The notes under the pieces: generated by a model
Databases searched by the model: none
Told to the model about the DNA's origin: nothing
What the model saw: only the letters and a program-made list of their open reading frames with translations
Part shown: positions 11,017 to 64,000 of the stretch, in pieces
How the letters are laid out: each line of letters starts with the position of its first letter
Numbering within the stretch: the first letter of the stretch is position 1
Origin: Parasitella parasitica NRRL 2501
Taxonomy: Eukaryota > Fungi > Mucoromycota
NCBI GenBank assembly: GCA_025201805.1
Contig: MU619362.1
Span: forward strand, 29,141 to 93,140
Length of the DNA: 64,000 nt
Direction of reading: 5' to 3'
Made by a program: the position numbers and the translations under genes

Positions 11017-11767
11017 ATAGATTTGAACTAGTATATTAAATTACTATGCATACACACCCCAATGTAATGAGTTATGATGAATAATAAAACAGTATTTATG
11101 AGATTTTCTCATGTGAACCGCGCATTAAAATACAAGTATATTCTACTTTTATGGTTTTCATTCATGGCAGTGTCATAGAATGACAAAAATGCTTGTCATT
11201 CAAGTCTCGCTGTCTACTTTATGAACACATTCTGCAGCCGTATATTCATTCTAAACTATCGCAATACGCTTGCTACCAAGTTTGTTGTGAAATAAAAGGT
11301 CTTGATTTAGCATATTGACGTAGATGTGAATTAGCAGTATCCTACTTATTCGAAATTAGCTTGGTAGACTTAAATTTATGGATCAAATAATACACTTCTA
11401 CTATTTGAAAAGCTGTCTTATCCGTCTTTGATTTGAATAAATGATCTAATGCAGCAAATAATGCTGCAAGAGTACTAGAACCAGTAGCAAATAGTGCCTT
11501 ATTTTAATTCGTCAGTTTAAGGATTTGTTAGGGACAAACTGCTTTGCACATTGCTTTTGATACACATATCGCCCAATGGAAATCAAATTCCTATGGGATA
11601 GTCCTAATTGTGTATAAGTTTAAGACAGGCTTTATTTTGCTTTGTATTAAAACGTATATGCGGATATATGTAGTTTTTATATGAAAATCACTGGTTTCGG
11701 CTTATAACTTCCTATATTTATATCAACTTTTTTTATCGATAGTACGAATATACTTATAAGATAACGC

Positions 11768-12009
11768 TGTGTTATCCAGGTTAGACCTTGCTTCTATGGT
11801 TCATTTAGCAGAAGCTATGACGAAATGTTTGTTAATTATGAAAATCAAAACTGTTTGGAAGACGGTCAAGGTAAAACAGTTGATAAGCAAGTGATGCTCA
11901 GATAGCCCTGGTTATGCCTATATAAATCAAACTTTAAATAGATTTTATTTTGCTCTTCATTAAAGCGTGCCCACGTTTATGTATAATTTTTGTAGCGATT
12001 CACATTACA
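11768..12009 (+). mobile_element. Putative solo-LTR-like remnant
   Basis: TG...CA ends with internal CCTATATAAAT and ATTAAA; no TSD found. Confidence 0.35.
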
Positions 12010-12249
12010 TTGATGTCTCATTTTTATATAAAATATCCAATTAGTATAAATAGGCCTAACTTTTACCAGATATTGGAACCTTTGTGAAAACAACCATCTA
12101 ATTCTAGTTCTGCTTGTTCTTGTTCTTGTTCTTGTTCTATTTAATACTATAATTAAAACTTGGATTAGATCTTACTACTCTAGTCGATCTGCTCCTTCTG
12201 ATCAACATATATCATCATAAAGGAGTTTATCACCATAAACTTACACTAT

Positions 12250-12382
12250 ACATTGCTGTCAATTACTACTTGTCTGGTAATATCCACAATGTATATTATA
12301 TAGTAAGCAATGGCCAAAATAGTAATCTTAGCAATTAGAAATGCCACCTTGACAATAAAATAATACATCATTCTACCCTTTT
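12250..12382 (-). repeat. Dispersed repeat, inverted copy of 22992-23123
   Basis: Reverse complement aaaagggtagaatgatgta...tgtcaag...atttctaattgct...gtggatattac...agtagtaattgacagcaatgt aligns by eye with 22992-23123. Confidence 0.8.
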
Positions 12383-13371
12383 GCCGATAAATTATTTTAC
12401 TCCATCACATTTCAAAGATAGTTTTGTATACATGCTTTTTTTTTTTGCCAATACAAAAAATTTCATATAAACGCACGCATATTTTGATAAAGAGAAAAGC
12501 AAGATAATTTTTGTATTTGGCTGATAGAAACGCAATTGCTATCTGGCGAGTATCATAGAGTTGGTAATTACACTAGACTGAATATATAGAGATTATACAA
12601 AAAAAAATATGATGATGAGGCTGTGATATACACACACACTGGCTACATGTGTAGTACCAATTCTTACAAGCACTACACGCATTCTGGTTTACTACGGATC
12701 AGCAGTATACAACATTTCATATCAAATTGCCCTCACTGAACAATATCGTAATATCTCTCACAGTTGCCATGGTAATGCCAAGATAAGGCAGAGGGCTTTG
12801 CCACGTCAAGGCATAGGCCAACTATTTAGTATGTCACATCTGCCCATGTTCCTGGGTCAATCTTGAGAATGAAACATATCACACTAAGTGATAGTGTCAT
12901 TTGTATACAAATAATGGTGTTGTATCCGATATTTTCTATCTCATCAAAGTGGGATCTACAGACTCTGAAGAATCGATTATGTATCAAGCTTCCCGTTTTT
13001 AAAACCTTGAGCATGACCATCCATGTACACATTGAGCTGCTGATTGATTGAAGAAAACATCAGGAATAAATTGTTTTGCTATATTTTTATAGGGTAGGAT
13101 ACCAGATTTTATGACTATATTGATGCTTTCATATTCAAATGAATGTACTGTAAACTGATTACTTTTTGTGATTGTGCAAATAAATAAGGAAAGGGAAGGA
13201 TTTGAGCGTGCGGTTGTAATTCAAAAAATGAAAATTTTGTGCGATTAACTTAAAAATATTCTATGTCAAAAGGGATGGAAGGGGATATAACGAAGGATAT
13301 AGGGGAAAATTTGGGTATCATAGATTCCTTTTTTTGTGAGGTTTTCGCTCTCTTTTTTTTTTTCAGGTATT

Positions 13372-20116: not shown

Positions 20117-21448
20117 ATGCCACCCAAGAAGGCTGTCAAGGAAGAAAAGACCATGCTGGGCCGCCCCTCCAACAACTTGAAGATTGGTGTGGTTGGTCTC
20201 CCCAATGTCGGTAAATCCACCTTCTTCAACGCCCTCACAAATGCTTCTGCTGCTGCCGAGAACTATCCTTTCTGTACCATTGGTATGTACTGGAGACAGT
20301 TATACTTCTAGATCCTAACCAAAACCGCATTCTTGTTTTTGACATCTGCCAGACCCTGAGGAGTCTCGTGTTGCTGTTCCTGATAAGCGTTTCAACTGGT
20401 TGTGTGAGCATTACAAGCCTGCCAAAGAAATCCCTGCTTATGTGAGTATTCGCCGTTGACTTTTGCATAGTCATGTTAATTCATCGATCCTTTATGTAAA
20501 TAGTTGACTGTTATTGATATTGCCGGGCTTGTAAAGGGTGCTTCCTCTGGCGCTGGCTTGGGTAACGCTTTTTTGTCGCACATCAAAGCTGTTGATGCGA
20601 TTTTCCATGTTGTTCGTGCTTTTGATGAGTCCGATGTTATTCATGTTGAAGGTGAATTGGATCCTATTCGTGATTTAGAAATCATTCGTGAGGAATTGCG
20701 TTTGAAAGATGAAGAATTCCTCACAAAGCAATCTGCCGAATTGAATGCTGCTGTTCGTCGTGTTGGTAACGGTGGCAATGCTAACGATAAAGCTAAAAAG
20801 GAGGAGGCTGCTACCATTGAAAAGGTGCTAGAATATGTTAAAGAAGGTAACGATGTTCGTCATGGTACTTGGACCAACAAAGAAGTCGATGTTATCAACA
20901 ACTTCCATCTTATCACTGCTAAACCTGTTATATATCTTGCCAATCTGTCTGAAAAGGACTACATTCGCAAGAAGAATAAGTGGCTTCCCAAGATCAAGGA
21001 ATGGATCGATAAGAAATCTGCTGGTGACCCTATGATTCCTTATTCAGCTGCCTTTGAATACCGCCTCACACTCGCTACTAGTGAAGAAGAAAAAAAGGCT
21101 ATCGAGGCCGAAGCTAAATCTGCCTTACCCAATATCATCATTAAGGGGTACGCTGCTCTTAACCTGATTTACTATTTTACTGGTGGTCCTGACGAAGTCA
21201 GAGCTTGGACTGTACGTAAAAATACTAAAGCTCCTGGTGCTGCAGGCGTCATTCACTCCGATTTTGAACGTGGTTTCATCATGGCTGAAATTATGAAATT
21301 CGATGATTTGAAGGAGTTGGGCTCTGACAATGCAGTTAAAGCTGGTGGCAAGTATATGCAGAAGGGTAAGGACTATGTTGTTGAAGATGGTGACATTATT
21401 TTCTTCAAGTTTAACGTTACCGCTCCTGCTGCTGGAAAGAAGAAGTAG
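20117..21448 (+). CDS. OLA1: Obg-like ATPase 1 (YchF/OLA1), 3 exons
   Basis: [34 protein letters not shown] domain [39 protein letters not shown]. Confidence 0.96.
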
Positions 21449-21897
21449 ACGATATATTTTTACCAAATAAAATATAAAATATACATTTCAACATTGTAAC
21501 TTGGGGGATTTGATATTACATTTACTTTTCGTAGTGTGTCACTTGGCGATATCATATGTTTAGGTCTGAATCGTACGTACGACTCATTCATTCGCTATGA
21601 ATGCATCTTGGCGAATTAATTTAAACACAAGGTCAAGACGATACTTGATAGGTACGATAATGTTGCAACGCATGTGCGTAAGATGCAATTTTTGGCCTTT
21701 TCCTCCCAGATAATTTTTTTTGAAAACATGAATGTAGCAATTGAAGTTGTAGCTCAGGTGATAATTTAGAAGAATAAGACGATAAAAGAACTATAGGGTA
21801 TTTGATTTTTTGATCATTACATTATGTTGTATTGATGAGGGTAACAATCAGAGCTCAGAAGGGTAAAGGAGGGGGGCGGAGGCCGCAAGCGAATATA

Positions 21898-22289
21898 TTT
21901 TTTTTGTAGTTAATATTTTATTTTATTCAAATATTATTTATAGAGGGACACATCGCGGAGTGGTGGACCTCGAACAACGAAAAAGACTAGCTGATATATG
22001 ACTATGTTTGTGAAGGGAGCAGTTTGTCAATGTGACAAACTGTCCGAGAGAGAAAGTGGGATATGGAGGAGGAAGAGAGTGGTGCCAGATTTTGTCGGCC
22101 GTGAAGCCAGTACAAGTTCCACATTTGCCACAAGGTCGTAGAGATGACAGCGATATAGCGGGAATGATCTTGGATAAAACGTGGGAGATGGAGATAGCGC
22201 ACGGTGCCATAGATAAGTTCAACAGTCAAGGGATAGTTGGCATAGTAATATCTTTTGAATATTATGGCTAGCCAAGAGTTGCAGATCAA
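21898..22289 (-). mobile_element. 3' fragment of a non-LTR (L1-like) retrotransposon: ORF2 C-terminus, 3' UTR and short A tail
   Basis: ORF 22002-22289 contains STTLWQMWNLYWLHG, the W-x-x-W C-terminal motif of fungal L1-like ORF2; AATAAA and an A8 run follow on the minus strand. Confidence 0.55.
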
Positions 22290-22379
22290 AGTTTTGATCT
22301 CGCTTCAGAAGCATGGAACAAGTCCAAAAATAGAAAAGGATCAATATTTTAGAAGTTGCTTTTTATGAAAAGACACAGG

Positions 22380-23690
22380 TGTTATGTCGTATGTATTTCT
22401 TATATGTAAATTTGTGTTTTCTGTTGATCACTTTAAATGATTATGGATATAAATCTATATTATATTGGATTTTTCATCCAGGATGTCTTGGTAGCAAAGA
22501 TTGAGAAAGAGAGAACCAATGGCAGATTTGACGAGTGTTGGAGTTGCTTCTATTTGTTCTTGATATTGGATTACGTCTTCTTAAAGCCATGCTAGCCTGG
22601 TCTTGATGATTGTGATCTTTGTGGAATATTCTGTGTAATTTAGAGTTCATATTCATAATAATTACAGAGATTCTTTTTATGCGTTGACTCACTTAATATT
22701 GATCTATAACATGTCTATAATTATAAAAATAAAACTATTATTGTATATAACTTTGGATATACACATCACTTAGTGGATCAAGTGATAGCTCAGGTAGCCC
22801 TGATCATGCTTGTGAATCTGGCTGAAACAATCATATGATTGTTTGTACAAAATGGTACAGACATTTTCAAGTATTTCTTGTATGAAAATCGTTGTTTCCT
22901 GCCAATATCTTTTTTCTATGGGTAAAAATGCTTTTATTCGAAAAAGCTGAGTTGTCGCTATGTTTGTGATAGAGTACAACTATCTAGTAGTAAAAGGGTA
23001 GAATGATGTACTATGTTAATGTCAAGTTGGGATTTCTAATTGCTGATATTGCTATCTTCTGGACCATTATTTACTATTCAATAAACGTGGATATTACTGG
23101 ACAGTAGTAATTGACAGCAATGTGATTTATCAGAATGAGAAATTATTCAAATAAAACGGTTGTGAATTAATCAGGTGAAGATCTCGTTTATTACATGGAA
23201 AAAATGATGGTTTATATACTAGTGAATCTAAGTGGACTGATGGGAGGATAAGATACAAGTGTGAGACATGGTGTGATTTAGAGAATGGAACGATATGATG
23301 TGAATTACTGGCAGTCTTTCACACATCATATTGAATTAGTAAAGCAGATCTTAGTTCTTGACTAAGATCCTGAGAATAAAGTATTAATAATAAGAATTAT
23401 ACCATTAATATTATACATTTAAAGACGATTGTACAACTTGTACTCCACATTAATCAAACACAGCTTACTGCTTTCCCATGAAGCTTAATTTAATCAAGAT
23501 CAAGTTATTATATTAGTAACTTGAATTCACTATATTTTACTTTACTATAAATAAGATGAAGTGCAAGGAGCTAACCAGAACTTCACTTACATTTTAACTT
23601 TAATAAACCAAGAAGAGTTATAATTGTATTTTTCTAAGCTTTTTTTAATTTTTATAGCACGATAGATCGTATCTATTGTCCATGAACATG
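22380..23690. mobile_element. Cluster of degenerate LTR-like/repeat remnants
   Basis: AT-rich, no credible ORF, several TG...CA segments with TATAAATA followed by AATAAA (e.g. 23546 and 23602); includes the copy shared with 12250-12382. Confidence 0.45.
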
Positions 23691-23796
23691 TCATTGTTAT
23701 AAATAAGGAACATGATCCATTGGGACATGTTCCTGAATTGTGTTCAGGATTGAGTTTACTTGAGTTTGACTTCCGGTTGGGAAATTGACATATTAC

Positions 23797-24103
23797 TCTG
23801 TTTCAAATCAAGAAGGTTATTACTGTAAGTAACACAGATCTGAGCACCAGGATAAAGGTTAAAACACTTTCAGAAGATCAAAGACGTGTAGCCCTTGCTG
23901 TATAACCTCAAATCGTACCCTGTCAAGTAGATTGTCACTGTGAACTAGTCTTGTCAATTAGTAATCTAAATAAGTGACCATAAATTCATGTAGCTGTAAA
24001 AAGTATAAATAGCAGATGCAATTTCGATCTTAAATAAAGTATCTATTTAAGCTTCCGTATCTTGTAAACATTTGGTTTTTATTATCTTTTTTGACCAAAC
24101 ATC
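23797..24103 (+). repeat. LTR-like repeat, copy A (inverted partner of 24783-25089)
   Basis: ctctgtttcaaatcaagaaggttatt...gtataaatagcagatgcaatttcgatcttaaataaagtatct...; the reverse complement is at 24783-25089. Confidence 0.9.
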
Positions 24104-24439
24104 TCTAATACCGTAATTGCTGAACCTCATGGCTCTCGGGTAGACAACGATTAAAACGTTACAAATCAAATCGGAGTTCAAAATAACAAAATTTAAACAC
24201 CGAATGCATTGATGAATTACATTATTGTATTCTTCCAGCAATACCAAAAAAACATGCAGTAAAAACAACAAATTTGGTCGACACTTATGTATCAATCGCT
24301 CATTATTTTTGTCAACCTTACAATTGTTGTGTTGTATCCATATAAAGGCTACATATGTCATATCTAACTTAGTCATAATGCACGGATCATGATATTAATT
24401 GTTGGTAATTCTTTTACAAATAAGGAATAAGCTACAAGT

Positions 24440-24755
24440 TGTAATTGGACCTCTTGCAAGGTTCCAGGCTTATTCAAAGAATACATCTAGATCAGATCGC
24501 GGGATGTCGGGAAGACATCCTACCCAATCTTCTCTTTAATGTAAAATAGAAAGATAGGTCTGTCCTGGAAATGCTGTGATTTAATAAGGTTTGACACTTC
24601 TTGTCAAACATCAGATGTTATGTGGATAAACATTGATTGGGATATATTTTAGTATAAATAGAGATCATATCTTATGTCAATAAAAGTCTTCAGTTTTGTA
24701 TCTGGTTTTATTCAGAAAGTCTTTATTACTTTATACAAATCTTATTTACATAACA
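24440..24755 (+). mobile_element. Solo-LTR-like element between the inverted pair
   Basis: Begins TGTAAT and ends ATAACA; internal GTATAAATA (~24652) then AATAAAA (~24679); no TSD detected. Confidence 0.6.
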
Positions 24756-24782
24756 TTACGCTGCGCCCTTTGACACTGGCAC

Positions 24783-25089
24783 AACATGTTGGATCAAAAA
24801 GATAATAAAAAAACCAAAGGTTAACGAGATACGAAAACTAAAGATACTTTATTTAAGATCGAAATTGCATCTGCTATTTATACTTTTTACAACTACATTA
24901 ATTTATGGTGACTTATTTAGATTACTAATTGACAAGACTAGTTCACAGTGACAATCTACTTGACAGGGTACGATATGAGGTTATACAGCAAGGGCTACAC
25001 ACGTCTTTGATCTGACAGAGCCTTAACCTTTATCCTGGTGCTCAGATCTGTGTTACTTACAGGAATAACCTTCTTGATTTGAAACAGAG
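24783..25089 (-). repeat. LTR-like repeat, copy B (inverted partner of 23797-24103)
   Basis: agatactttatttaagatcgaaattgcatctgctatttatac...ccttcttgatttgaaacagag is the reverse complement of copy A with scattered substitutions and indels. Confidence 0.9.
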
Positions 25090-25868
25090 ACTTTATTCTC
25101 CAATTTACACAAGCGTATCACATCACATCATTGGACAATCTTCAATCTTCAATTGAAGTACATTGCCATGATCTCCTATCTATAATTATGGCAGATCAAC
25201 AATCTCTTCCTTGTCTGGTACGGCACTATATTTAGGCAATGTATACAAACACTTTACATTTTTACAAAAAGCAAGTGTAATATTGTCGGTCTCAAGTATA
25301 CCGCGCCGGCCGGTCGTCTCAATATATTGGTCGGTCATATCTTCAGCGACAAAGTACCGACTGGGTAGATTCGTCGGTCTCATTTCTGCCCACTCGGTAT
25401 AACTCTCGGTCTTATCGTACCGAGGAAAATATTTAAACACCGAAACACGTAAACTTTTCAAGGCTGGAAATATAATTTACTTTAATTGTTGTATAGCACT
25501 GTATGATATATGTAGACGAAAAAAATAAAATTTTCTCCTACTCAGATGGCAATTAGCAGAGAATATTCTTATGTTTGTTTTTCGCTGCTGTGTTTATTTT
25601 ATTCAGAGAAATGGGCTTAAGTCTATTCGGTAGTGACCTAGTCGCAAGACTTTTTCGCTACAGTATAATCTAGGCAGTCTCTGCCCTAGAGTGAAGATTT
25701 GGGTAACAACAGGTGAAAGTACAAGTGGGGGCCGTTGCAGTGCAACTTCGTTTATTGTCGTCGCACTCCGTAGCTTTTTGAAATATATAGGGGGGGGGAG
25801 AGCGGGTTCGCTCTGTTCTTTTTCATCTGTATATCTTTCCAGATAAAATGTCTCCTTAATCATTTAGT

Positions 25869-25973
25869 TACCTGGTTGATCCTGCCAGTAGTCATTTGCT
25901 TGTCTCAAGGATATTAAGCCATAATGCATGTCTAAAAGTATAAATAAATTTACAATGTGAAACTGCAAATGGC
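25869..25973 (+). pseudogene. Degenerate fragment of the 18S rRNA 5' end (about 105 nt), preceded by probable 5'-ETS sequence
   Basis: TACCTGGTTGATCCTGCCAGTAGTCAT(t)TGCTTGTCTCAA...GCATGTCTAA..GTATAAATAAATTTA...GTGAAACTGC..ATGGC matches the universal 18S start with small insertions; preceded by TAGT as at the A1 cleavage site. Confidence 0.92.
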
Positions 25974-26005
25974 CCAATCAATTACGATATCTACGTAACC
26001 TAGCG

Positions 26006-26920
26006 CTATAAATGAGGAGCAGCGTCAACAGAGTGATAGTCAAAAGACAACGACATCAGTTTGTGGTCAGATCCCAGGGACAAATCAGAGCAAATACTAA
26101 TTTTTGGGGATGAAAGAGATAAAGATGAGGTACCCAGAGAGGCAGAAGACAATGACGCTACATTCGTAATGTAGTAATCGACAATGCTACTTACATTCTG
26201 CCCACGACGACGATCCTCTAGAGTAGGTGTGCCGTGGGCTAACTGGCAGTTCAGAACATTTAACTCGTTGTCAGCACAGTATTCTTGCAAAAGGTTGCCA
26301 CGGGAATTGGTGGCATAATCACCAACAAATGCACCCATTCTAGCGTTAAGATCACCGCAGATAATAGTATCGTGATCCAGAGGGATCGCATTCAAGATAG
26401 CAGAGACCTCAGCTGTATAGAGACCAGCCTGTTCAGGCGGTATATACAGGCAGATGAGCCGAAGCTCACGACCCAGTTGAATCCCAAGTGCGAATTCATG
26501 CAAGGCAGAGGGCAGAGGTGTTTGGAACGCGGTAAGAGGGCAAGAGGGGTTGATCAGGCAAGAAATGCCTCTTGAGCCTCGACCGCCACCAGCGACAGGA
26601 ATTCCAGGCAAGTGGAATTGCTGCCAGGTTGTGGGTATATGGACCGGAAGACGATGTAGCCATGTTTCCGTAATAAAGAGAACTGAAAAGGATTGGCAGT
26701 ATCGGAGGACATCATCAATTGTTGTGTCTCTAAGACCGCGAGCGTTCCAGAGACCAATTGTGAGTGGGGTGAGGGAGGCGCTATTAATGATGGTGGCCGA
26801 AAGGCCGGGAGGAGTTGTAGGATTATTGTTATTAAGGAATGTAGTTGGAGTAGTAGTAGTTGTAGCAGTGATGTTGGGAGACATGGTTGGGTTATAATGA
26901 TTGAGTTCACACTCAATCAT
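26006..26920 (-). CDS. LINE ORF2, apurinic-like endonuclease (EEP) domain only, 3' truncated
   Basis: IGLWNARGL, LFITETW, LICLYIPP, IICGDLNAR, TNSRG, PT, SIVDYYIT, LGSDHKLM. Confidence 0.92.
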   Translation of the reverse strand: MIECELNHYNPTMSPNITATTTTTPTTFLNNNNPTTPPGLSATIINSASLTPLTIGLWNARGLRDTTIDDVLRYCQSFSVLFITETWLHRLPVHIPTTWQQFHLPGIPVAGGGRGSRGISCLINPSCPLTAFQTPLPSALHEFALGIQLGRELRLICLYIPPEQAGLYTAEVSAILNAIPLDHDTIICGDLNARMGAFVGDYATNSRGNLLQEYCADNELNVLNCQLAHGTPTLEDRRRGQNVSSIVDYYITNVASLSSASLGTSSLSLSSPKISICSDLSLGSDHKLMSLSFDYHSVDAAPHL

Positions 26921-27843
26921 TATAACATTTCCACTTCGGAGTCATGCATGGCAGCATCGCCATCCACGGGGCGACGGTAGCCAAAGAGACCCTCCTCAGG
27001 GGCCAAGGCTTCAATGTCTTCAGAGGTAATCCAACCTGCAGTCTGAAAGTAAGCAGCGACAGAGGCAAAGAGACGGGAACGGCGAGATGCCAAGTAACGG
27101 AGGGACTGTGTGCAGCGCTTGATCTGCAACTCAAAGGCAATATCCTCGCGCTTTGAGATTGAGAGCTCACGGTACTTGGGATCAGCAACGTGCTGCGGGT
27201 CAACAGGGTCAAAGTTGGCCACAACTGCAACTTTGTTCTTGGACAACAGGTCCAGAAGGGTTTCCTTGTATTGGACATGGATCAGAATGCCAATAACGTT
27301 GCGAGCGGGGAAGGTAACATCAATGATGCGAGATGCCTCTGCACCGATGAGGTGCAAGTTGTTGCGAACTTCAGTTCTGGTGAAGCGGCGAGAACGGTTG
27401 ATATAAAGGCATTCATAGCCCTTAGGTCCGTCTGCTTGGGCATTAAAGCCACGGGTAATAGCCTGACGGTGCTTTTCAGTCACCTCAGAGGGAGCTTTGA
27501 TCTTTCTTGATCTGGGCTTCTTCTGGACAATTTCAGTCCAAGTGGAGGTGGTCTTGGGGGCGCCAGTTGCTGCCTTGCTGTGCTGCGGCTGCTGATTGGT
27601 TGCAAAGGAAGCTGGGTTATGTTTGACAGCTGAAGGGGAAGCAGTAAGATCGGCAATCTGTTGACGAAGACTGGCATTTTCTTGAGTCAAAGAAAAATTT
27701 TTGTTTTTCAGATCTAAAATGGCACTTTTAAGAGTGTTCAACTCTTCCAGGGCGGTACGGTGAACAGAAATATCCTTCTGCATACTGATGACTAACGTCT
27801 GCAAATCTAGTTGCGACATAAGAGTGGATGGTTCTGGCTCCAT
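26920..27843 (-). CDS. LINE ORF1 (coiled coil plus conserved C-terminal domain)
   Basis: N-terminal heptads (LTQENASLRQQIADL), TWTEIV, GYECLYI...RIIDVTFPARNVIGILIH...FDPVDP; lies directly 5' of the APE ORF. Confidence 0.85.
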   Translation of the reverse strand: MEPEPSTLMSQLDLQTLVISMQKDISVHRTALEELNTLKSAILDLKNKNFSLTQENASLRQQIADLTASPSAVKHNPASFATNQQPQHSKAATGAPKTTSTWTEIVQKKPRSRKIKAPSEVTEKHRQAITRGFNAQADGPKGYECLYINRSRRFTRTEVRNNLHLIGAEASRIIDVTFPARNVIGILIHVQYKETLLDLLSKNKVAVVANFDPVDPQHVADPKYRELSISKREDIAFELQIKRCTQSLRYLASRRSRLFASVAAYFQTAGWITSEDIEALAPEEGLFGYRRPVDGDAAMHDSEVEML

Positions 27844-28095
27844 GGTCTGTTTACCGGTTGCTAGATGATCGAGTGAAAAAATATTTGCGGTGTTTTTGGG
27901 GTTTTTTGTAAAACAGGTAAATACTTGATCAATCGTTTTGAAAGTTGAACAGAATATACTTTAAGATATTAACACTTAATGTATATTCTATTGACGGTTG
28001 TTGCTTTGGCTGTTTACTGCTATGGATTTCCTTGTCTAATATTAATATCACGTGTACCTGAATTCTGAGGTCAAAACGTAATAAAAAAAAAAAAT

Positions 28096-28168
28096 GGGGA
28101 TGTAGCTCAAATGGTAGAGCGCTCGCTTAGCATGCGAGAGGCACTGGGATCGACGCCCAGCTTCTCCA
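28096..28168 (+). tRNA. tRNA-Ala (anticodon AGC)
   Basis: GGGGATGTAGCTCAAATGGTAGAGCG-CTCGC TTAGCAT GCGAG-AGGCA-CTGGG ATCGACG CCCAG-CTTCTCCA cloverleaf with the G3:U70 Ala determinant; T-run Pol III terminator follows. Confidence 0.96.
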
Positions 28169-28776
28169 ATTTTTTTTCCATTTTTTTTTTTGGTGATACG
28201 TTTCACTTTTTTAAAAAAAAAAAAAAAAAACCATTTTGTTTGCTTAACAGAGAATTCAAATAAAATGTCAAGCTTTGTGGTGAAGGCTTATTTTTATGAT
28301 GGAAATTTGATTCGAACAGTACTGATTGTAAAAGGAAACTTTTCTAATAATCGATGGCATTTAATAATCAGTAAAAGCCATTAAGTTTTGAGTCTGATTT
28401 TTTTTTTTTTTTTTTTTCATAATTGTCTATAACCTGCCTCGCTTATTTCCAATTCAGACCCTAATTATCTCTTTCTCATTCAAGTTAATAAACTTTATTT
28501 AACTCAGGCAAGCGTAGGCTTGCGAAACTACTATTAATTCTCTGAGTATCTCAAGTCTAAGGCGACTTGAACACTTGAATTCCTTTGTGTAGTAACTCTT
28601 GGGTCCCATGTGGAGACTATGAAGATTAAGTATTTTATGCAACTCAGTCTCTGTATTCACAAAGAAGATTATTCCAATGAGCGGAAAAAAAAGGGGTGAC
28701 AAAAGAACTAAAACTTGATTGCTACAGCTGTTACACACAAGTGTATATTGTAGAACGTTATAATGTTGTGTATTTC

Positions 28777-60384: not shown

Positions 60385-62400
60385 GTGTTACTAATAATCG
60401 CCTACTCCAAGTACGTCAGTACTATATGCAGAAATCGTGTTAAAAAGTATTACCTTGATCTGATTGAGCTTCTCCATTATGGTGGGCAAAAGCAAAATAT
60501 CATCAGATGTCGTTCTGATGAAGTTAAACTCACTTATCTTCATCATTCTGTATTGGTCATTATATTTAAGATCTATTTTAAATGCTGTTGCTACATGATC
60601 TACAATATACAAGTATAGATAAATTAGTAATAATATGGTAGCTTCTACGATGTTATTTACCTTCTTTAATAAGCAACCCAACGACTTCTGGGTTGGTGAC
60701 CTTTTGCAATATGAGCTTATTGATACTAATTTGCATTTCCTTACCCATTTTTACTAAATCAGACTCATAATTCCCTTTATAATGGTTTCCCTTTCTCTTG
60801 ACTTCAACAAAACAAAGCTCGAAAGTAATTGATGAGTAGGGTTCAACGAATAAAACGTAATTAGGCATCATTAACGGACTTGAGGAGAATTCTGGAGGAG
60901 AAAGTAAATGATAGGTTAACCTAAAAAGTAAAAAATGAACACACAAATTCAAGTCTATTCATGCATTCTTACCACTCGTATTTCGTTCCAGTTAGCTGTG
61001 AAGTCCAGCAATGTAATAAAAAATGGCCTCATTCAATGATTTGATTGGCTTCACCTTCTTGTCTGTTTGAAAATGTGAGGAATAACATCCTTAGTTATTT
61101 TGACGGCTATTTTCATTTGTTTACTATTGCTGCTGTTCTTTATCAGATCGACAGCGTCTTCCTCGTTCATTTCTTCATTATACAATGACCTCTGCATTTT
61201 ACGACATGCTATCAACATATCGTCTTCCATGAACTCCAAATATTGCTTTAGATTAAGATTCTTCATTACTGCAAGCTGTTGTTCGGGGGAGGAGCCGAGA
61301 TAAAGAACAATGCTCGCTGTCAGATATAAGGAAAATATACGACAAATAACTATTTGTGAGCCCATTAATAAAGTATTGAGCTAATGCTAAGAAACAAATG
61401 AAATAAAACAATGACTTACATTTTTTTTTGTAGGTGTGAAGATTTATTAAAATAAACTCATAAAATTAAAAAATTAATAAGGGAGCAACTGTATTAAGAA
61501 AAGTGACCTGTCTCGAGGAGGGGCAAAAATACTATATTACAAAATGTTGAGAGCTGATAAGTGTGTCGCAAATTGACCATGGTGCGATCCACGATGGATT
61601 GGTTGTCAGAGGCAACTGCATCAATATGGTGTTGCCATTTGGCACGCCAGACAGAAGTCAGTAGACATGTAACCGCTTCGAAAACAGAAACTTTCAATTT
61701 GGAGTCCCGAAGACGTTATCCTTGAAGGTTTAAAGACATTGCATCTTGAGATACCTGATCCATGTTCAGTGGACAAGAAGGCACAAAGAGCAAGGCAAAG
61801 TAGTTTTGCCAAGCATCAGCGTGAGATGGGCAAGTGAACAACATGTGGGCAGTAGTCTCACGACCAATGACTTACGGAATACGAATGGCGGACAAATATT
61901 TGCGCATTTGCGCGCCATTTTCTGTGATTTGGCGGTACTCTCTCAATACAGTTGTCATGTTGAAATTGTTAATTATCCACTAATAGACTGAAATGTTTAG
62001 AAAAAAAATCAAAGTGAAATAAAATCTAGCCTGAGGGTATTTATCATCTTCATCCCCGAAATTTGTTTTGCTATAACAATTACTCGTGTAAGCATCAATA
62101 TACTTTGATTTTCTTTTTTTTATCAGCGCTATGCCACGACCAAGGAGCACTTTCTTCATCTCCAGAATGATGACTACGCTTTGAAGGCGAATCTATATTT
62201 GGCAAAAAAAAAAAAAAATTAATATTGTTTTATCATTGTTCTTCACAGAGCAACACTTGCCGAGTTGTGAGGTGTTTGGTCCTGTAGGAGGTTGATACAT
62301 ATTAACAACTCCGTGTTCGTTTGTAATGGACACTCCATAGTTGATATTTTGTGTGTAGGATTTTTTTGACACGCTTGGGAGCAAGTGAATCCTTTATAAT
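60385..62400 (-). pseudogene. Degraded Mucorales multicopy PD-(D/E)xK-like nuclease-domain gene, interrupted by a LINE fragment
   Basis: MMPNYVLF...ELCFVEVKRKG...ESDLVKMGKEMQISINKL...VVGLLI, DLKYNDQYRM; upstream exon LREYR...LSAIRIP|YLSYIF; frameshifts present. Confidence 0.55.
61420..61864 (-). mobile_element. 5'-truncated L1-like LINE insertion (ORF2 C-terminus, 3' UTR, A tail) with an 11-bp TSD
   Basis: ETTAHMLFTCP zinc-knuckle part and LTSVWRAKW; AATAAA and A9 tail; CAATGACTTAC at 61409-61419 and 61865-61875. Confidence 0.88.
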
Positions 62401-62521: not shown

Positions 62522-64000
62522 ACGAGCTGTATCACACCGCCACGTTCGGTTAAATTTTCACCTTCGCTTCGCTACGGTAAATTTACCCTTCACTAAAGCG
62601 GTGTACAGCTCGTGCTGCCGCAGGCCTGTTTTACCATTGAAATAAAGTGCTTATAATTTGAATTTTATTTGTTCTTATGCATTGTAGAAAACTTCTTGAT
62701 AAACGATATTGTGAGTATATGACCCAGTATGATTGTCTATTCGGGATATATCATCAGAGATCATTACTTTGATAGAAGTTGGCGTCCTCACACGCGATAA
62801 TGCGACATACAGTTGACCGTGACCAAATAAATGGCCTGGCAGGTACAAACCAACAGAATTTAGCGTTTGCCCTTGCGACTTGTTGATGGTCATCGCAAAT
62901 GCCAGTCTTACGGGAAACTGGATTCGTTGAAAATCAAAAGGTGAGAGGCCTTCAGTGGCAAGAGAAATGAATTTGATTTTAGGGATAAGAACAATGTTGC
63001 CAGCATTGGGCCCAGTAGCAATGATTGCTTCGATGACATTCGTCATGAGAGAGTTGACGATTAATCTCGTACCATTACAGATGCCAGCCGCAGGATCAAT
63101 ATTTCTGATTGCCATAATTGGAGCACCAATTTTCAAATCAAGAATATGAGGAGGCAAAGACCCATTTTCGATGGTGTTAAGCATCTCAACCGGCATTGTC
63201 AATTGAGATTCATCTTCGCAGGCTTGATCACTACTGACGTACGACATTTTGCGCCCTTCAATACACTCCAAGAGTATATCGTTTATCACCTTGACATCTC
63301 TGTTTTTTGCAGTCAAGATAGCCCTCCCAGCAAAGTAATTAAGACTGTTGGCCGCAGTCGCAATATCAAAGAATATGCTTCTTATCAAATTAATCAAATT
63401 ATCTCCAGGTATGAGCATCTCCTCAGGAATTTGGATAAAATCTGTAGGTATGTCTCTGGGCAGAGTAATTGTAGGAACAGTACCTTGACCAACCTGAAGT
63501 AGATAATCAGCGAACTGTTGAAGTTCATTGGCAAGACCTGGATTGTCAGTTTGAAGAGCCTGTTGAACTCTCATGTTTGTGTGCAATTTCATTGAGACCA
63601 CCAATGGCCAAAAGCATGCTTTGTTCAAGCACTGGCCGACAATAACCGATCTGCTGGCACCACGGATTATCGGTAAAATCTGACGAAAATCTCCACCAAA
63701 AACCATGAGAAGGCCACCAAAAGGGAGATCAGCATTCATTATATCACGAAATGAGCGATCAACTGTTGCTATCAAGTCCTTGCTAATCATTGAACATTCA
63801 TCCCAAACAATAATTTTTGCTCTTTGGATAAATGATGCTATATTAGAGCGGGGCGAAATGTCGCACATGCTAGTATTGCCTACTTCTAAAGGTATCTTGA
63901 AGGTAGAGTGAGCAGTACGTCCGCCTTTGAGCAACAATGCAGCAGTTCCACTTGATGCCACAGCAATTGCAATATGACCTTCTCGTCTCACACGATTAAG
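62522..64000 (-). mobile_element. Helitron 3' end (PIF1-family helicase plus terminal hairpin); continues beyond the window
   Basis: Intronless PIF1-like ORF followed about 60 nt later by a long imperfect palindrome ending CTCGT|T. Confidence 0.85.
62675..64000 (-). CDS. Helitron RepHel PIF1-like DNA helicase, C-terminal part
   Basis: AVASSGTAALLLKGGRTAHSTFKIP, WDECSM, FGGDFRQILP, RNIDP..GICNGTRL, QFPVRLAFAMTINKSQGQTL, GQLYVALSRV. Confidence 0.93.
   Translation of the reverse strand, partial: LNRVRREGHIAIAVASSGTAALLLKGGRTAHSTFKIPLEVGNTSMCDISPRSNIASFIQRAKIIVWDECSMISKDLIATVDRSFRDIMNADLPFGGLLMVFGGDFRQILPIIRGASRSVIVGQCLNKACFWPLVVSMKLHTNMRVQQALQTDNPGLANELQQFADYLLQVGQGTVPTITLPRDIPTDFIQIPEEMLIPGDNLINLIRSIFFDIATAANSLNYFAGRAILTAKNRDVKVINDILLECIEGRKMSYVSSDQACEDESQLTMPVEMLNTIENGSLPPHILDLKIGAPIMAIRNIDPAAGICNGTRLIVNSLMTNVIEAIIATGPNAGNIVLIPKIKFISLATEGLSPFDFQRIQFPVRLAFAMTINKSQGQTLNSVGLYLPGHLFGHGQLYVALSRVRTPTSIKVMISDDISRIDNHTGSYTHNIVYQEVFYNA

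Follow-up and report, generated by a model that had tools for sequence, protein, structure and literature searches.

A repeat island in the genome of the fungus Parasitella parasitica NRRL 2501 (Mucoromycota) ends at a tRNA-Ala(AGC) gene, and the element nearest to that gene, a long interspersed nuclear element (LINE), points its 5' end at the tRNA from a distance of at most 43 nt. The island lies in a stretch of 64,000 nt of contig MU619362.1 (assembly GCA_025201805.1, positions 29,141 to 93,140 of the forward strand), which is called the window here and whose numbering is used throughout. The locus is a real, well-defined candidate, resting on one copy, for behaviour in a new host group like that of the TRE5 elements of Dictyostelium, which integrate upstream of tRNA genes. 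On balance we lean towards the view that this recent LINE copy was inserted in a tRNA-directed manner, its integration complex being tethered to the RNA polymerase III (Pol III) machinery as in TRE5-A. The features which carry this argument are the following:

26006 to 26920, minus strand: fragment of the second open reading frame (ORF2) of the LINE, APE endonuclease only, 3'-truncated (Pfam PF14529, E 7.6e-11, and PF03372).
26920 to 27843, minus strand: LINE ORF1, intact, 307 aa, an open frame from the ATG at 27843.
27844 to 28052, minus strand: LINE 5' untranslated region (UTR), minimum extent, from two contigs of sequencing run X3 that end at 28052.
28096 to 28168, plus strand: tRNA-Ala(AGC) (Rfam RF00005, 54.4 bits; ARAGORN 28095 to 28169).

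The tRNA gene is directly followed by a T run and is the sole tRNA gene detected in the window by ARAGORN and Rfam. An earlier, sequence-only reading of this DNA had described a LINE with intact ORF1 and APE lying head-to-head with tRNA-Ala(AGC), its ORF1 ATG 252 bp from tRNA +1; the open frame, the Pfam match and both tRNA predictions bear this out, and the measured spacing is 252 nt. It had also supposed that the LINE 5' end lies only tens of bp from the tRNA, a distance which is now bounded by contigs from four sequencing runs (X3, X5, X10, X11) mapped to 20500–28094. Two X3 contigs cover the LINE 5' region, one with a single difference from the window (depth 231) and the other with 62 differences (depth 258); 28052 is the position at which each of them stops. 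Their depths are 6.7 and 7.5 times that of the unique flank in the same run (34); summed contig depth is not a copy number and is read here as several copies each. The LINE is thus multi-copy, with two subfamilies of several copies each, and 82–92% of its words are present in six of 16 sequencing runs. Position 28052 is either the true 5' end shared by copies with differing flanks, or the point where the subfamilies merge into a slightly longer common end. Because both subfamily contigs reach 28052 under either reading, the LINE 5' end is confined to 28052–28095, at most 43 nt from tRNA +1. The copy itself is recent and the youngest-looking element of the island, as it is matched by contigs with no or one difference.

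In the available excerpts of the published accounts, TRE5 elements are found 40–54 bp upstream of tRNA genes (PMC5911963), with a range of 37–90 bp for TRE5-A (PMC5006619). Insertion of TRE5-A takes place some 50 bp ahead of the tRNA gene, which the 5' end of the element faces (PMC3159450). TRE5-A needs the B box, and its ORF1 protein binds TFIIIB (PMC5911963). The Parasitella LINE has the orientation of TRE5-A, its 5' end facing the tRNA 5' end in the one copy seen here, and the upper bound on its distance, 43 nt, falls at the edge of the 40–54 bp window of TRE5. TRE5-A, TRE5-B and TRE5-C of Dictyostelium discoideum and NLTR-B of Polysphondylium pallidum are likewise two-ORF, APE-type elements of a gene-dense genome and face the 5' end of a tRNA gene with their own from some tens of bases away, as far as the same excerpts tell (PMC5006619, PMC5911963, PMC3159450). 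The TRE5 ORF2 combines APE, reverse transcriptase (RT) and a C-terminal zinc finger, which is matched in full-length relatives of the Parasitella LINE, where a C-terminal Cys/His motif is visible by eye, whereas the present copy has no RT. The two systems differ in that the host is a fungus and ORF1 belongs to a Mucoromycota family; moreover, in these accounts TRE5-A targeting is experimental, while here it is the position of one copy.

If insertion was tRNA-directed, a particle of ORF1 and ORF2 proteins would bind TFIIIB or TFIIIC, APE would nick the DNA some tens of bases ahead of the tRNA gene, and target-primed reverse transcription would leave the LINE 5' end towards that gene. Each new arrival would shove older DNA outward; units resembling long terminal repeats (LTRs) probably came into the resulting gene-free patch by nesting, and the RT half of the LINE was probably removed by a later deletion. 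Under uniform insertion in a 33-Mb genome, 14 copies give any one tRNA gene a probability of about 1e-5 of facing a head-to-head 5' end at 44 bp or less, and 1000 LINE 5' ends raise this to about 1e-3; for the number of cases per genome, tRNA gene counts were borrowed from Lichtheimia (174) and Rhizopus (239). The earlier proposal that this LINE family uses Pol III genes as targets finds partial support, in that the orientation is that of TRE5, the distance is bounded and the arrangement is unlikely by chance for one family.

The ORF1 stop and the ORF2 start overlap at 26918–26922 as TAATG on the minus strand, which suggests coupled termination and reinitiation. ORF2 aligns at 78% with residues 1–297 of a 1259-aa relative, P0010, and the homology ends near 26030; no RT was found in the window when 51 proteins, including P0010, were compared with it. 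Because P0010 aligns over this part only and the window lacks an RT, the copy is taken to consist of the 5' 2 kb of the LINE, its 3' part being lost, a truncation not mentioned in the earlier reading.

A word search retrieved nine ORF1 relatives; those with a species name belong to Parasitella parasitica (best 76%) or Mucor velutinosus. A further 42 longer relatives carry APE and derive mainly from Mucorales and other assemblies. A profile search with ORF1 gave 777 clusters at 50% identity (E<=0.001), and three ESM Atlas clusters with ORF1 are 97–100% eukaryotic, Mucoromycota being commonest. The element is a Mucoromycota APE-type LINE. The ORF1 protein is predicted to comprise a coiled coil (residues 9–68), an RRM-like domain (about 139–211) and a helical C-terminal part, in agreement with an AlphaFold model (mean pLDDT 84.8) of a long N-terminal helix, a four-stranded domain and a helical tail. 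The best fold matches of the four-stranded domain are RRM/ferredoxin-like at modest Z, 7.8 at most. We take the domain order to be reminiscent of L1 ORF1p; among 50 fold matches the RRM of human L1 ORF1p was not found, and its coiled coil appeared only amid many generic coiled coils. ORF1 in the window lacks a zinc knuckle, and none of 143 ORF1 relatives has the CX2CX4HX4C pattern. A search for antisense-tRNA peptide motifs gave six matches among the same 143 proteins, none telling by its place. Both full-length ORF2 relatives examined with Pfam (P0010, P0012) have APE and RT and lack zf-RVT.

In Mucor velutinosus, 11 ORF2 proteins annotated at NCBI belong to the family, and the relatives in this species are grouped, with close locus tags and shared contigs. 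This clustering would fit, if only weakly, a stacking at favoured sites of whatever kind. Several of the LINE proteins of this species (P0005, P0065, P0067, P0095, P0096) are misannotated as msh6, glutamate synthase, dihydrosphingosine phosphate lyase and others.

Outside these genomes, no family locus was found in viral contigs (with ORF1, full ORF2 and APE queries), in metagenomes or prokaryote genomes with the ORF1 query, or in plasmids. With the ORF2 query, seven of the 64 parts of the metagenome collection yielded 80 distant LINE loci at 22–31% identity, and prokaryote genomes yielded one contaminant-like contig, L081, the rest of whose genome contains no flanked copy. L081 is a fungal-type LINE contig with ORF1 and APE inside a bacterial metagenome-assembled genome and is probably eukaryotic contamination. 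Its ORF1 is about one third identical to its relatives and is preceded by a leader of 239 nt, comparable to the minimum of 209 nt in the Parasitella LINE, before the contig ends; its ORF1/ORF2 overlap is ATGA. ARAGORN found no tRNA in any of the 81 fetched loci, 80 of which are unrelated elements and thus uninformative on targeting.

The remainder of the island starts at about 21898; in two runs the single-copy contigs reach as far as 21927, a position one word-length into it. It contains the following features:

21898 to 22250, minus strand: 5'-truncated tail of a second LINE, with the C-terminus of a zf-RVT ORF2, 3' UTR and poly(A), 94% to protein P0091.
22965 to 23123, no strand assigned: old repeat piece with an 80% copy at 12250–12409 (self-BLAST E 9e-33).
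23296 to 23659, plus strand: nested 364-bp TG...CA insertion with a 5-bp target duplication, CGATA, solo-LTR-like, skipped by contigs.
23799 to 24101, plus strand: LTR-like unit, the 3' part of a longer one probably starting near 23100 (self-comparison, depth).
24330 to 24786, plus strand: LTR-like unit with a 6-bp terminal inverted repeat and a possible 5-bp target duplication, TGTTG (scan candidate).
24787 to 25201, minus strand: LTR-like unit with TG...CA ends, TATAAATA and AATAAA, 91% over 311 nt to an inverted copy at 23796–24102.
25202 to 25707, no strand assigned: unclassified repeat-like stretch, recognized by depth, with two ORFs without Pfam match.
25708 to 25798, plus strand: short piece of a repeat with a G run at its end and with loose ends at 25708 and 25798 in X3 and X5.
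25869 to 25978, plus strand: degenerate 18S rRNA 5' end with small insertions (RF01960, 68.9 bits, E 1.2e-18, in a 251-nt scan).

The tail at 21898–22250 is 94% identical to the Parasitella zf-RVT protein P0091 and 60–84% to nine others, and PF13966 (zf-RVT) is present in nine of its ten relatives. It is oriented as the main LINE, and was considered as the lost 3' end of that element; this was rejected, as the RT of its family is 27% identical to P0010 and the tail thus belongs to a different family. Single-copy sequence follows at 22606–23016, and 23040–25325 consists of repeats with a summed contig depth of up to about 33,000, as against the flank depth of 34 in X3. The copy of the old repeat piece at 12250–12409 sits in an AT-rich intergenic stretch (11300–13300) without a detected tRNA gene.

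Four contigs each in X3 and X5 skip 23289–23659; since CGATA stands on both sides and contigs skip the unit, 23296–23659 is regarded as a true nested insertion. Its TG...CA ends and duplication match those of Ty3/gypsy solo LTRs, for which 4–6 bp are typical. A scan for TG...CA ends with target duplication gave 22 candidates, most surely due to chance, and displayed the 23296 unit only when that range was forced. The unit at 24330–24786, with high depth and a joint at 24330, is a putative one from among these 22 candidates. The inverted pair of 311 nt has no target duplication; its interpretation as a DNA-transposon terminus was rejected, as each copy shows a TATA box and a poly(A) signal besides its TG...CA ends. 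The remaining LTR-like units gave no significant alignment with one another (z -0.4 to 2.5). At 25198, 32 X5 contigs diverge from the window with an agreement of 0.39, and the bin 25326–25579 has a depth of 17,783 in X5 and of 0 in X3, X10 and X11. Because no gag or pol was identified in these units, they are called LTR-like, a label resting on termini and motifs. The stacked LTR-like remnants and second LINE fragment of the sequence-only reading are accordingly upheld as a LINE tail and as repeats by depth, with the LTR assignment qualified in this way. That reading also entertained tRNA targeting by the LTR families. The units lie 2.9–5 kb from the tRNA gene and one is nested in another repeat; for these reasons there is no sign of targeting here, and the units represent accumulation.

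Other copies of the piece at 25708–25798 run on into an A run, and it is possibly the 3' end of another, possibly small non-autonomous, retroelement. The 18S rRNA piece adjoins the ORF2 break, was unreported by wider Rfam scans and went unmentioned in the earlier reading; it may represent an rDNA pseudogene or else belong to a repeat. In X3, a loose end at 25839 points to related sequence upstream of the 18S piece elsewhere.

The remaining runs, X10 and X11, were included as runs with zero shared words. In X10 nearly all differences from the window are C>T or G>A, the OLA1 gene included, and for this reason it looks like a converted library rather than another strain. X11 is a diverged relative which also carries the main LINE family; its OLA1 contig ends at 21461. 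No insertion-free site was seen among the X10 and X11 contigs mapped over the island.

Several points weigh against tRNA-directed insertion. With 1000 LINE 5' ends, 0.1–0.3 such cases per genome would arise by chance, and the present case is a single locus, picked for its tRNA adjacency from a scan of very many windows. The exact LINE 5' end is not fixed, as the stop at 28052 is compatible both with a true end and with a merge, and the junction between element and tRNA is without contig coverage. No target duplication of at least 9 nt was found for the main copy, the 3' end of which is lost. Furthermore, the island is no clean stack: the 18S scrap and several LTR-like units lie in between, 5.8 kb separate the second LINE tail from the tRNA, and the piece shared with 12250–12409 has no tRNA near its other copy. 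Finally, L081 is the only family member among the 81 fetched loci, and it includes no flanking DNA.

Part of this picture would also be expected of a passive island, in which diverse retroelements collect in intergenic DNA that tolerates them, is probably silenced and ends at a tRNA gene by chance, the LINE having landed there without recognizing the tRNA. Such an origin is possible, though less likely: content and orientations are mixed, a unit with a target duplication sits inside another, there is an 18S scrap and one piece recurs far from any tRNA, and in Mucor lusitanicus only GremLINE1 is reported to occupy a specific region, according to excerpts of PMC9963178, which do not deal with tRNA genes. 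A passive island does not predict, however, that the youngest-looking element should be the nearest one to the tRNA, with a TRE5-like spacing and orientation. A preference for sequence or chromatin, by which APE favours the AT-rich nucleosome-free DNA of tRNA leaders, would give enrichment without a fixed distance and seems improbable. L1-type endonucleases nick AT-rich DNA, and the leader of the tRNA-Ala gene contains a long A tract (28073–28094), but the bases just past 28052 form no A/T run, and the 3' junction, which would reveal the nick site, is lost. Very improbable, in our estimate, is an assembly artefact in which a collapsed repeat contig became fused with a tRNA gene of several copies. 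None of the listed contigs spans 20500–28094, the tRNA junction is uncovered, and at 26121 every mapped X3 contig disagrees with the window; against this, the unique parts at 20500–21927 and 22606–23016 match two runs without difference, and this copy breaks off at a point of its own beside a unique neighbour.

Grem-LINE1 of Mucor, a mucoralean L1-like element that likewise has APE and RT, is described in the available excerpts as carrying an ORF1 with several zinc fingers and a zf-RVT domain and as occupying pericentric gene-free regions (10.1101/706580, PMC9963178). The Parasitella LINE is considered a different family because its ORF1 is without zinc fingers (by Pfam, by the model and in all 143 relatives by the knuckle pattern), its ORF2 relatives P0010 and P0012 lack zf-RVT, and it lies between OLA1/YchF and RGS genes instead of in pericentric DNA. 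The second LINE tail, compared on that domain only, shares a zf-RVT type ORF2 with Grem-LINE1. The sequence-only reading knew of no such targeting in Mucorales. For LTR elements this has a precedent, as co-localization of Ty3/gypsy elements with tRNA genes was reported for Rhizopus oryzae in 2009, for LTR elements only and with distance and orientation not stated in the text available (Ma et al., PMC2699053). The likeness is that of LTR-type repeats near a tRNA gene in Mucorales, whereas the units here are 2.9–5 kb away and have no identified gag or pol. A fungal tRNA-targeting LINE was not found in literature searches, Repbase and subscription papers being outside their reach. None is mentioned in the parts available of PMC4133162, PMC12019607, PMC11258239, PMC5604411, PMC9963178 and the preprint of the latter, and the table of a 2018 review, as excerpted, gives only dictyostelid elements as tRNA-targeted among non-LTR elements (PMC5911963).

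Most of the window consists of ordinary genes, also on both sides of the island, and the gene-dense flanks noted earlier are confirmed by Pfam matches to OLA1/YchF, RGS, malic enzyme, actin and others. A PIF1 helicase frame (62678–64000, minus strand), which runs off the right end of the window, is probably a Helitron. Close to it, near 61630–61870, zf-RVT proteins give weak tblastn matches (E 0.3–0.4).

If insertion was not tRNA-directed, the locus is an ordinary nested repeat island. If it was, it would represent a further convergent origin of non-LTR targeting upstream of tRNA genes, in a group that includes a genetically tractable model species, Mucor lusitanicus. It is conceivable, albeit doubtful, that a large Mucoromycota LINE clade homes upstream of Pol III genes via its coiled-coil/RRM ORF1, having arisen independently of TRE5, and thereby seeds retroelement islands. 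Were insertion tRNA-directed, one could examine whether distinct ORF1 proteins have arrived at a single TFIIIB surface; some of the clustering of repeats at tRNA genes that was reported for Rhizopus in 2009 might also be accounted for.

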